Assembly: GCA_019894975.1 (NCBI GenBank)
Contig: JAGXNO010000009.1
Location: 19,644-83,643 of the forward strand
Reading direction: 5' to 3'
DNA: 64,000 bases
Origin: Promethearchaeota archaeon
Lineage (GTDB): Archaea > Asgardarchaeota > Lokiarchaeia > Sigyniarchaeales > SOKP01
Of this stretch, positions 3,927 through 33,137 are shown in pieces. Under the pieces are notes generated by a model. The model did not search any database and was not told the origin of the DNA. It saw only the letters and a program-made list of their open reading frames with translations. The translations under genes and the position numbers were made by a program. Within the stretch, counting starts at the first letter, position 1. Each line of letters begins with the position of its first letter.

Positions 3927-4082
3927 CATTTTTTACCGAGATCTATTGTTAATAGTGAATTTATAAGGTTTAAATCCATAACTTAATTAAGTCTTAAAAT
4001 TATTTTCTTTATCCTAAGAATTTAGTGAGAGATTTAGAAGAATATTTTTATATCAGGTACATACTCGTTTAGGTGTTTTGAG

Positions 4083-4928
4083 ATTAACATTTGGATCTTA
4101 GAATCTGATTCAGGAATTACATTGGTATATAAACCGTATATGGATTTCCCTGTTAACGAGGATCTCGTTTCGGGACTTTTAACGGCGCTTAATCAGTTCA
4201 CTATAGTAGAATTTAAGCAGGGCATTGATTCTATAGAAATGGGTGGCCTAAGATGGGTTTATATTCAAGATAAAGAAACTAACTTATTATTTATTGCCGC
4301 AGATTCTAAAGCCATAAGCACAGATATGCTTAGATCGAGATTAGACGTCATTCGGCACACATTTATCCAACAGTATGCAAATTCTAAAAATCGCTGGAAG
4401 GATAAATGGACAGGCAATGTTGAGGTTTACAAACCGTTTGAGAATGTTATTGATGAATACTATACCCAGTGGATACAAGCTGAACGTATAACCACAGTTG
4501 CTGAATTTTTCGATATATTAGGTATCTTTCAACAGATCCTAAATTTAATAATGAACGTTATTGAAGGACATCTGTTTGCAAAAAAAAAGCAGAGAATTTA
4601 TAAGAAAATTGAAAAAATGTTTAAAAATTATACAAAGTTAGAGATTGTGAAGAAAAATCCAGAATTGAGCAATATCGTATTTCACAGAAAGACTGGAATT
4701 AATATTATTAATATTAATCCTATGAACTGTGATATGCTTGTTGTAGAGAAACAAATTATAAATTTAATTAAGCGAATGGTAGAAATCCTTAAGGATGAGG
4801 AAGAATATTTTGAATCCTTGAAATTTTTTGTTGATGAAAATATTTTTGAGTATCTTCTCTCGAATTTTTCTCTTTTAAATGATTTAAACTTGTTCATTTT
4901 TTTAATCAAACTTTTTCTAATGAAGTAA
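4083..4928 (+). CDS. Longin-like domain protein (Asgard eukaryotic-signature type); start probably ATT 4083 rather than TTG 4122
   Basis: INIWILESDSGITLVYKPY...DLVSGLLTALNQF...IDSIEMGGLRWVYI...LLFIAA matches the longin beta-beta-alpha-beta-beta-beta-alpha pattern. AGGTG lies 7 nt before the ATT. Confidence 0.7.
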   Translation: MNIWILESDSGITLVYKPYMDFPVNEDLVSGLLTALNQFTIVEFKQGIDSIEMGGLRWVYIQDKETNLLFIAADSKAISTDMLRSRLDVIRHTFIQQYANSKNRWKDKWTGNVEVYKPFENVIDEYYTQWIQAERITTVAEFFDILGIFQQILNLIMNVIEGHLFAKKKQRIYKKIEKMFKNYTKLEIVKKNPELSNIVFHRKTGINIININPMNCDMLVVEKQIINLIKRMVEILKDEEEYFESLKFFVDENIFEYLLSNFSLLNDLNLFIFLIKLFLMK

Positions 4929-5111
4929 TCTATCTTTAATCTCTTGAATTTATTCGGCTAAATTTAGATAGATGTAGAAGTTATAAATCAGATCTTTAGT
5001 ATTCTTAACTTTTTACTACTCAAGTTAAGGAAAATTAATTTTAAATAGATTTATTAAAAGATGTTTATTAAAAATATTAATTGACTTCAAATATTTAATT
5101 TCGAAATAATA

Positions 5112-30747: not shown

Positions 30748-31815
30748 TTAGAGTTGGTCCGTAGATAATTTTTTCTCGAGATCTAAAGTACGAATAAATT
30801 CTTCTTGAGTTTTTCTAATTCCTTCTAAAATTGGATTAAAATCGAGGGATTCAAAATTTTTCCACCAGGTATAACTCTCAGTTTTGATGTTGTCTAATTC
30901 TTTTGAGTTTTTAGTAATTATTATCTTTCTATCTAAAAGATAAGAAGGATCTATAATCTCCTTATCATTTTCTTCAATTCTTTTTAAGTTTTGGAGCATG
31001 CATTCGAGTAAATCATCATAAAAGAGCAGCGGGATATATTTAATAACGCGAGTCTGAGTTTCTAAACCGTTTTTGATTGATCCTTTGTCTATACTATCTG
31101 AAAAGCCCACATTTGAAAAATCGAATATTTCTATATCTATTAATTCTGGATGATATTCTGTTTCTTTTGATCTTTTAAATTTCCTATAATAAGTCATGTC
31201 TTTAATTTTATACATCCTCGCGTTTTCTTGCTCTCCCTTTATTTCTACAAGAATGTTATTCTGTTCCATTCGTTTCCTACAAATATCAGACACTAATTGA
31301 CAATAAGCTTTCGCTGCTTCTGTAAGATCCTCATTGAGGATTTTAGCTTTTATAATGTTATGCAGATAAGCTCTTAGAAAAGCTGAGAAATCTTCTTCTA
31401 AGGTAGGAAGATTCGCATATAGAAATTTTGTAAATTTCCACCATTGTGACACCCGTACATGTGTTAAAGAGAGGAAAAATTTCTCACGCGATCGCAATTC
31501 AGTAAAATAAAACAACTTTTCAAATCCATGTTGAAGAAATGGGAGTGGATCAATTATAGCTGTTTGATCTTCAGTAATCGGAAATGAAATTGGTTCTCTA
31601 GGCCGTAATAAAACGGAATTTTCACCATTAAATACTCGATCAACCCTCATAGGCAGTGGCATTATTGGATTGTTACCTACAGAGGTGATTAAGTTTGCTA
31701 AATTTGGTTTATTTATGTTTGAATAATCGGGAGGGAAAATATCAATAAAAAAGAAAAAGGGCGCTGCATCAAACTTATAAGTTTTAAATTTATTAATCGG
31801 TTTTATAGTAATCAC
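30748..31815 (-). CDS. Hypothetical protein
   Basis: 355-aa ORF with no recognised motif. Confidence 0.75.
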   Translation of the reverse strand: MITIKPINKFKTYKFDAAPFFFFIDIFPPDYSNINKPNLANLITSVGNNPIMPLPMRVDRVFNGENSVLLRPREPISFPITEDQTAIIDPLPFLQHGFEKLFYFTELRSREKFFLSLTHVRVSQWWKFTKFLYANLPTLEEDFSAFLRAYLHNIIKAKILNEDLTEAAKAYCQLVSDICRKRMEQNNILVEIKGEQENARMYKIKDMTYYRKFKRSKETEYHPELIDIEIFDFSNVGFSDSIDKGSIKNGLETQTRVIKYIPLLFYDDLLECMLQNLKRIEENDKEIIDPSYLLDRKIIITKNSKELDNIKTESYTWWKNFESLDFNPILEGIRKTQEEFIRTLDLEKKLSTDQL

Positions 31816-31910
31816 CAGATAAAGATAATCTATATCTTTGTAATTAATAGTTTTTAATACAATAGAGGAAAATATTAATTTTATCTTAAGTTAATGATTT
31901 TAATTCATTA

Positions 31911-33137
31911 TTGTCGAGAAAATTTAACACATTAGAGAACAAACTAGGTGATAAAAAAATTAACCTAAACGAGGAAGTTGAGAAGATTCTGTTAGATCAA
32001 GGTGCTATTAGCGTTGGATTTGCTACTAAAAAAACGCTTGAAGGAGGACCTCCTACTACGGATATGACTTATATTCTACCAGAAGCTGAAACTGCGATCT
32101 GTTTTGCCGTTCCATTGGATAAACCAAAAATACGTTCTTTTTTAGGAAAAGAACTTCCTAGAGGACATTTTGACCACGTTATTGATAATGGTAATGTGTA
32201 TTTAAAAGCATATAAATATGCAAAAGTAACATCTGACTTTTTAGAAGAGAAGGGATATAAATCAGCTCCAGTCATTAATAATTTCAAATATCGCGAGGAT
32301 GTCCAAAATTGGAGAACGAAATTACCTCCCCCTCTTGCTTTGAGACTGGTAGCTGCCCGTTCAGGAGTTGGTTCAATTGGATGGTCTGGAAATATTTTAG
32401 TCAAAGGTTACGGTGCAGCTGTTTTGTTAGGAGCCCTTGTAACTTCTGCGAAATTAAAACCTACTGAATCTATACCCCCTGAGGAATCTCCCTGTGATAA
32501 ATGTAAACTTTGTGTTAACGTTTGTGCTTATAGAATGTTTGATAAAAATGAAGAGGATTCCTATACTCTTGGTGAAAATACATTTTCATTTTCAAAACGT
32601 AATAATGTCTCTCGATGTTATACTGTTTGTGGAGGATCATCGGGGTTAGATAAGACAAAAAAATGGTCCACATGGTCTCCAGGACGAACCCCTTATCCTG
32701 AAAAAGAAATAGATGCGGATAAAACATTTGCTCACCTTTTTTCTCATCCCATTAAAAATTCACGGGTTGTAGGAGAAGAGGGGAGTTATGCAGAATCTGA
32801 GTTATTACATGACAAAGTTGCCCAAGAATATATATCATCAGGAGAAATTGCATCAAATACTATCACTGAGAATTTTACATTAACATGTGGAAATTGTCAG
32901 TTAATTTGTTGGGGTGATCACGATGAAACCGTTGAAAACTATCGTATATTAACAAATTCAGGTTGCATTGTGACAAAAGAAAATGGAGAGAATATAATAG
33001 TCTCTAAGGAAGAAGCAGATGAACTTGAAAAATCTGGAAAAATTGCTGATCCGTATGTAGAAACCTCTGAAAGACGCCAATATGTAGAAAATATCGTTGT
33101 TGATATCTTTAAAAAACTTAGAAAAGAACAAGCATGA
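31911..33137 (+). CDS. Epoxyqueuosine reductase (QueG)-like Fe-S protein; start may be ATT 31959
   Basis: GAISVGFA, AARSGVGSIGWSGN, LLGALVT, CDKCKLCVNVC, TCGNCQLIC. Confidence 0.8.
   Translation: MSRKFNTLENKLGDKKINLNEEVEKILLDQGAISVGFATKKTLEGGPPTTDMTYILPEAETAICFAVPLDKPKIRSFLGKELPRGHFDHVIDNGNVYLKAYKYAKVTSDFLEEKGYKSAPVINNFKYREDVQNWRTKLPPPLALRLVAARSGVGSIGWSGNILVKGYGAAVLLGALVTSAKLKPTESIPPEESPCDKCKLCVNVCAYRMFDKNEEDSYTLGENTFSFSKRNNVSRCYTVCGGSSGLDKTKKWSTWSPGRTPYPEKEIDADKTFAHLFSHPIKNSRVVGEEGSYAESELLHDKVAQEYISSGEIASNTITENFTLTCGNCQLICWGDHDETVENYRILTNSGCIVTKENGENIIVSKEEADELEKSGKIADPYVETSERRQYVENIVVDIFKKLRKEQA

Follow-up and report, generated by a model that had tools for sequence, protein, structure and literature searches.

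AUU, AUA and AUC (collectively AUH, or ATH in the DNA) very likely act as real translation starts in the Asgard genus from which the DNA analysed here derives, a conclusion drawn from comparison of sequences. The window, meaning the whole 64 kb stretch under analysis, has a GC content of 32 % and comes from a 3.9 Mb Asgard assembly in 175 contigs with an estimated contamination of 8.6 %. Six of its genes very probably begin at such a codon, namely carB, a gene for a fused DppB/DppC-like permease (Dpp) and genes for wHTH-like, longin-like, QueG-like and RAM-like proteins. Across the genome, AUH codons probably start at least 2 % of long open reading frames (ORFs) and roughly one in four of the genes led by a strong Shine–Dalgarno (SD) sequence, and the gene for the initiation factor aIF1 itself has a conserved candidate ATT start.

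Start codons of the six window genes and their orthologues

Orthologues were sought in 30 relatives, comprising 18 genomes of the genus and 12 others of the order, and in each orthologue the codon corresponding to the proposed start was read. ATG, GTG and TTG are referred to as canonical, and d denotes the number of nucleotides from the first G of the SD core to the start codon. The window's own genome is G000, whilst other G numbers are comparison genomes. The longin, RAM, QueG-like and wHTH family names correspond to Pfam matches below the cut-off or to none. The six genes and their proposed starts were as follows.

19675..21540, plus strand: fused DppB/DppC-like permease; ATT start at 19675, SD AGGTGA at 19663-19668, 6 nt spacer
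26142..29453, minus strand: carB, carbamoyl-phosphate synthase large chain; ATA start at 29453-29451, SD GGAG at 29468-29465
25724..26008, minus strand: small RAM-like gene of about 95 codons; ATT start at 26008, SD GGTG at 26020-26017, 8 nt spacer
31959..33137, plus strand: QueG-like Fe-S protein; ATT start at 31959, SD AGGTGAT at 31946-31952, 6 nt spacer
4083..4928, plus strand: longin-like gene; ATT start at 4083, SD AGGTG at 4071-4075, 7 nt spacer
16843..17070, minus strand: small wHTH-like gene of 75 codons; ATA start at 17070-17068, SD AGGAGGT at 17084-17078, 7 nt spacer

All six lie at d=10-12, matching the spacing of ATG genes. Many of the starts also have an in-frame stop only 1-3 codons ahead of them. 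When start codons at the homologous methionine were tabulated together with SD spacing, up to 30 relatives displayed ATG, GTG or TTG or again ATH, in keeping with what the initial annotation had proposed. For Dpp, carB, aIF1 and the RAM-like orthologues, no canonical start was available before sequence that the family needs. For carB and the longin-like and wHTH-like genes, orthologues carried ATG at the homologous codon, and one QueG-like orthologue carried TTG there.

The in-frame stop ahead of Dpp is the TGA inside its SD, AGGTGA. The first 74 codons from ATT 19675 contain no canonical start and encode the first transmembrane segment (TM1) and the PGDP motif, just as had been read from the window at the outset. 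Three species (G000, G009 and G012) had ATT at the identical ISNLK position, and in G000 and G009 the arrangement AGGTGA-N6 with the stop inside the SD was shared; in G014, an ATG was instead present 13 codons upstream of the ATT position. In the public protein collection, Dpp is represented by a 547 aa form beginning at ATG 19897. Syntenic Dpp orthologues in G018, G006, G010 and G016 (L032-L035) carried an extra N-terminal membrane domain of approximately 190 aa that is absent from the window copy, together with an in-frame canonical start: in G018 this is a TTG at codon 7, whilst the other three open with ATG. Loss of the domain may have preceded the origin of the ATT start.

The carB frame is closed by TGA 29477 and its next canonical codon is GTG 29420, with ATA 29453 between the two; the claim that carB can start only at this ATA held up in that sense. 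Translation from the ATA gives PLDRSIKKALVVGSG, and the Pfam CPSase_L_D1 (preATP-grasp) match sets in six codons past the ATA, five codons ahead of GTG 29420. The homologous codon in 26 orthologues was ATG in 19, GTG in two, TTG in two, ATT in two (G005 and G008) and ATA in one (G000). Over codons +1 to +10, orthologues differed from the own copy by 58 synonymous vs 34 non-synonymous changes. The carA stop TAG (29458-29456) ends 2 nt before the carB ATA. Across the genus the carA stop and carB start lie within a few nucleotides of each other and the carB start codon is unusually variable, which together suggest translational coupling. It is conceivable, if somewhat doubtful, that the carB ATA is used by termination–reinitiation coupling with carA, with little help from the weak GGAG. 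The adjoining TAG, an SD that matches at only four bases and a genus-wide choice of ATG, GTG, TTG, ATT or ATA, as if efficiency hardly depended on the codon, are consistent with this idea, but it leaves the other five genes, all of which lie behind intergenic regions, unexplained. Coupling is also compatible with AUH initiation at an SD rather than opposed to it, as re-initiation just past the carA stop may supplement or replace the SD effect in carB.

The longin-like and wHTH-like genes had been described correctly as to coordinates and motifs (AGGTG, 7 nt, ATT 4083 and AGGAGGT, 7 nt, ATA 17070, respectively). The next canonical start of the longin-like gene is TTG 4122. Its homologous codon was ATG in 11 and ATT in five (G000, G002, G005, G006 and G018) of 16 genus orthologues; every ATT form had GGTG at d=11, whereas the ATG forms had GGGTT only. 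Differences from the own copy over codons +1 to +12 were predominantly synonymous (87 vs 31 non-synonymous). The protein matched Pfam Fuz_longin_1 below the cut-off. In the wHTH-like gene, TAA lies six codons upstream of ATA 17070, and TTG 17028 is the first canonical codon after the ATA. ATA behind GGAGG(T/A) was present in G000, G002, G018, G012 and G017, whilst six other orthologues had ATG at the homologous codon and lacked a five-base SD. In two of the ATA genomes, G018 and G012, this 75-codon gene has no canonical start until 32 codons past the ATA. A Pfam search with the wHTH-like protein returned no match.

The RAM-like and QueG-like genes, initially listed as weaker cases alongside a gene at 31815, proved to be among the best supported; the gene at 31815 is ambiguous (see below). 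All 20 RAM-like genus sequences had ATT (14/20) or ATC (6/20) behind (A)GGTG, with a stop directly before in eight, and their next canonical start was 7 to 65 codons downstream in a gene of about 95 codons. Between the ATH and the next canonical start of the own copy, 43 synonymous vs 2 non-synonymous differences were counted. The window copy has a TTG (26023) five codons upstream of ATT 26008, and in other families an ATG is found 2-4 codons upstream of the ATH position. The protein matched Pfam AsnC_trans_reg below the cut-off. Among eight QueG-like family members, the homologous codon was ATT in five, ATC in one (G022, from another family of the order), ATA in one and TTG in one. GGTGA or GGTGG preceded the start in 8/8 with a spacer of 6-11 nt, and a stop lay three codons upstream in three. 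A TTG at 31911, upstream of ATT 31959, has no SD and was seen in the own copy only among family members. Neither gene carried ATG at this codon anywhere within the genus, and the same applied to aIF1. With ATG absent there, the conserved AUH codon of all three looks maintained rather than merely tolerated.

Genome-wide association of ATH codons with SD sequences

Consensus and spacing of the SD were derived from the ATG genes of the own genome. These displayed a G-rich region from -14 to -8 with T at -9, GGTG at -11 to -8 and a spacing mode of d=11-12. We defined an orphan SD as a five-base match that lies ahead of every canonical start in an ORF of ≥100 codons and serves no ATG, GTG or TTG in any frame (n=147). 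At d=11, an ATH codon was present in 32/46 in-frame positions vs 6/97 out of frame; pooled over d=10-12, the counts were 56/144 vs 21/283 (Fisher p=8.6e-15). The claim that AUH starts exceed chance is thus borne out across the genome with a control for frame. A first statistic, the SD rate per codon before the first canonical start at wide spacing, gave mild ATH enrichment only and was discarded, as SDs of true ATGs contaminate it. Counting all SD-led in-frame codons at d=11 gave ATG 52, ATT 20, TTG 18, ATA 18, ATC 8 and GTG 6.

A strict screen accepted ORFs in which a five-base SD lay at d=9-13 from an ATH, this ATH preceded every canonical start and the SD served no canonical codon. It returned 72 SD-ATH genes among 3306 non-overlapping long ORFs (2.2 %), beside 208 SD-ATG genes. 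The shares of ATT (37), ATA (24) and ATC (11) in this set roughly followed how common each codon is, and d was 11 in 38 genes. Median distances were two codons from the upstream stop to the ATH and 26 codons from the ATH to the first canonical start. The screen recovered only 2/6 of the supported window genes, so that 72 is a lower bound and the true number of AUH-start genes is probably several-fold higher.

Two further comparisons addressed the stretch that runs from the ATH to the first canonical codon. Its coding score (0.294) was close to that of the first codons of SD-ATG genes (0.287), vs 0.152 for open non-coding leaders. In a test less circular than the SD-anchored screen, we took the 119 ORFs in which a stretch of ≥25 codons looked coding yet contained no canonical start: 42 had a five-base SD before ATH, vs only 10 before the equally common control codons AAT, TAT and TTA. 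The 93 ORFs whose stretch looked non-coding showed no excess of SDs before ATH over the control codons. Judged by the coding score and the synonymous-rich differences, the codons upstream of the first canonical start are translated and under purifying selection.

The same association was found in G005, a complete single-contig genome of the genus, where 400 kb sampled gave ATH in 7/22 in-frame vs 1/43 out-of-frame positions (p=0.0015). No signal was seen in 800 kb of G026, of the same order and 31 % GC (2/15 vs 2/30, from only 15 orphan SDs), nor in 800 kb of G055, of another Asgard family and 30 % GC (2/21 vs 2/36, from only 21 orphan SDs). Low GC alone does not yield the SD-ATH signal.

A conserved ATT at the start of aIF1

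The only SUI1-domain gene of the own genome encodes aIF1. TAA lies two codons before its ATT, the first ATG is near the C-terminus, and both the zinc knuckle and the SUI1 domain precede any canonical start. The ATT, an invariant leader and the TAA two codons upstream were present in 17/17 genus genomes with readable sequence. Outside the genus, the start was ATA in sister genus g5, TTG in g2 and ATG in more distant families. Across the phylum the aIF1 start was mostly ATG, and a few other families also had no canonical start. Seven such loci outside the order (L178-L180, L175, L187, L190 and L196) had no ATG, GTG or TTG before the zinc knuckle. Three of these displayed ATA before SLERCPIC behind a purine-rich stretch and one displayed ATA before SEICPVC, whilst in the remaining three neither a canonical nor an ATH candidate was found in the stretch listed.

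Doubtful sites in the window

Two further sites in the window were considered as AUH starts and not accepted. The first belongs to the following gene.

30748..31815, minus strand: gene without family assignment; start GTG 31815 (inside GGTGAT) or ATA 31806

The in-frame GTG was kept in 14/19 orthologues and is available as a start, on which ground the gene was not counted. The codon at the ATA position was ATH in 11 orthologues and GTA, TTT, TTC or GTC in four. In the G004 orthologue (L130), a TAG separates the GTG from an ATT behind GGTGA, and this copy may start at the ATT. The second site, ATT 48867 on the minus strand behind GGAGGTG, falls within the 3' end of the upstream gene. ATG 48816, 17 codons past it, has its own SD and begins the family-typical N-terminus (MQVGFYFDQTRC). 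The ATT at optimal SD distance is probably a chance or overlapping signal, an N-terminal extension being the less likely reading. Nothing relevant was found when the 64 kb window was scanned with Rfam and for tRNAs.

Alternative explanations and the initiator tRNA

Translation might instead begin at the next downstream ATG, GTG or TTG. The in-frame stretch ahead of that codon would then go untranslated, as a remnant left when an ATG was lost, and the proteins would be correspondingly shorter. Public gene callers pick such starts, and in carB and the wHTH-like and longin-like genes the canonical codon is only 11-14 codons on, a loss of residues that might be tolerated. The same account would, however, strip Dpp of TM1 and PGDP, with its next start 74 codons in, would remove up to 65 codons of the roughly 95-codon RAM-like orthologues and would delete nearly the whole of aIF1. 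It also sits poorly with upstream codons that change mostly synonymously and score as coding, and with the conservation of both the ATH codon and its distance from the SD, in many cases with a stop immediately ahead. We regard it as highly improbable.

If AUH codons are starts, strong SD pairing (core GGTGA, first G 11 nt before the start, as for ATG genes) would set the codon in the P site, where, as at AUU starts in bacteria, the ordinary Met-initiator tRNA would be accepted despite a third-position mismatch. We infer that initiation at AUH would use Met-tRNAi and would depend on the SD. Dedicated decoding, either by an additional initiator-like tRNA whose anticodon differs or is modified, or by initiation with Ile-tRNA, would be another route. 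An initiator tRNA gene was not identified in the own assembly, and the initiator anticodon arm pattern (GGGCTCATAACCC) had an exact match in G026 and none in three same-genus genomes. Against this, tRNA recovery from the own assembly was poor overall (16 with ARAGORN and 29 with Rfam, many with long introns and none with a CAU anticodon), which makes the absence of the initiator uninformative. The use of ATT, ATA and ATC (37, 24 and 11) near codon abundance is what tolerance of a third-position mismatch predicts, and orthologues swap AUH freely with ATG, GTG or TTG at the same codon. A dedicated system consequently seems a slim prospect. A variant code of the mitochondrial type, with ATA read as Met, is ruled out by the use of ATT and ATC beside ATA in these same candidates and by the alternation of ATT and ATC at the RAM-like start.

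Sequencing or assembly errors, or recent gene breakage, could have changed ATG to ATA or ATT in a metagenome-assembled genome of this kind (175 contigs, 8.6 % estimated contamination), but we give this almost no weight, since the same ATH codon stands at the same position in genomes of other species that were assembled independently (the single-contig G005 among them), ATT and ATC alternate among species with the protein conserved, and the enrichment is specific to frame and spacing.

Several points nonetheless weigh against genuine AUH initiation. The screen sees AUH only where an SD is present, which renders the notion that AUH needs a strong SD partly circular, and the nearby downstream starts of carB and the wHTH-like and longin-like genes could be used as well. 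Sequence errors appear to be excluded only indirectly, through the agreement of independent assemblies. No CAU initiator tRNA was found in the own assembly using ARAGORN with and without introns, the anticodon-arm pattern, Rfam or BLAST with the G026 candidate, and an unusual initiator is possible. The samples from G026 and G055 were small (15 and 21 orphan SDs). Finally, fidelity-site changes in aIF1 had been suggested as a place to look, and only conservative substitutions were seen: at columns conserved among 30 other Asgard aIF1s, the genus protein differed by L>F, E>D, L>A, C>S, K>R and I>V. In that 30-sequence comparison, no change pointed to relaxed fidelity or could be related to known fidelity sites.

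The initial annotation had attributed the AUH starts to relaxed start-codon selection in the lineage. Lineage-wide use of AUH is supported by the orthologues, the genome statistic and the lineage test. The term 'relaxed' is too loose, given that these codons stand behind a strong SD at ATG-type spacing.

Relation to known systems and implications

In Escherichia coli, infC (encoding IF3) and pcnB start at AUU and IF3 autoregulates its own synthesis; such starts are confined to a handful of genes, far below 1 %. The genus examined here resembles E. coli in that AUU stands behind an SD, the gene for a proofreading factor itself has AUU and third-position near-cognates are tolerated. It differs in scale, with at least 2 % of long ORFs and about one in four strongly SD-led genes, and in the factor concerned, which is aIF1, a homologue of eIF1, rather than IF3. 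The arrangement suggests that the AUU start of aIF1 would hold the factor at a permissive level by a feedback similar to that of infC and IF3.

Eukaryotic eIF1 autoregulates through a poor start context. Common to both settings, eIF1 or aIF1 sets the stringency of start selection and its own mRNA has a weak start; eukaryotes, unlike this genus, scan and favour CUG, GUG and ACG in Kozak context, whereas AUH here would be placed by SD pairing. Control of non-AUG starts by eIF1 and 5MP is described in PMC13754004, and aIF1 of Sulfolobus solfataricus favours discrimination against non-canonical starts according to work cited in PMC6237735. Tentatively, the AUH-start genes might form a translational regulon that is tuned by the level of aIF1, which would keep itself low via its conserved AUU. 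Roughly one in four SD-led genes would then be responsive, and the weak starts of the RAM-like, QueG-like and aIF1 genes would be retained by selection instead of being just tolerated.

An AUH start has been remarked on once in an Asgard archaeon: a 'rare ATT start codon' was reported for the tubulin AtubA of a Kariarchaeaceae metagenome-assembled genome, in a one-gene remark made while cloning (PMC13394414). The deposited protein lacked its first beta strand, which was restored by an ATT further upstream that was plausibly spaced from a ribosome-binding site. No other Asgard AUH start, and nothing systematic, came up in the literature that could be searched. Use of AUH starts is itself already known; their frequency, a lineage pattern and a link to aIF1 were not reported in the papers searched.

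NCBI translation table 11 lists ATT, ATC and ATA as alternative initiation codons, and common gene finders consider ATG, GTG and TTG only. Systematic mis-annotation of N-termini had been anticipated from the window. We saw it directly for Dpp in its shortened public form, and its wider extent would follow if AUH starts are as frequent as estimated. Gene calls would then truncate or miss proteins systematically in this genus and probably in other Lokiarchaeia. The genes affected would include those for an essential initiation factor and candidate Asgard 'eukaryotic signature' proteins such as the longin-like proteins, and truncated database entries would lead to structure predictions and expression constructs without the first strand or helix.

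Reviews describe SD sequences as rare in Lokiarchaea (PMC12993045, PMC7531240). In the genome analysed here, SD-led genes form a minority class, and among them near-cognate starts match TTG roughly in frequency. For the archaeal lineage closest to eukaryotes, aIF1 with its conserved AUU would provide a concrete, testable case of control over start stringency.

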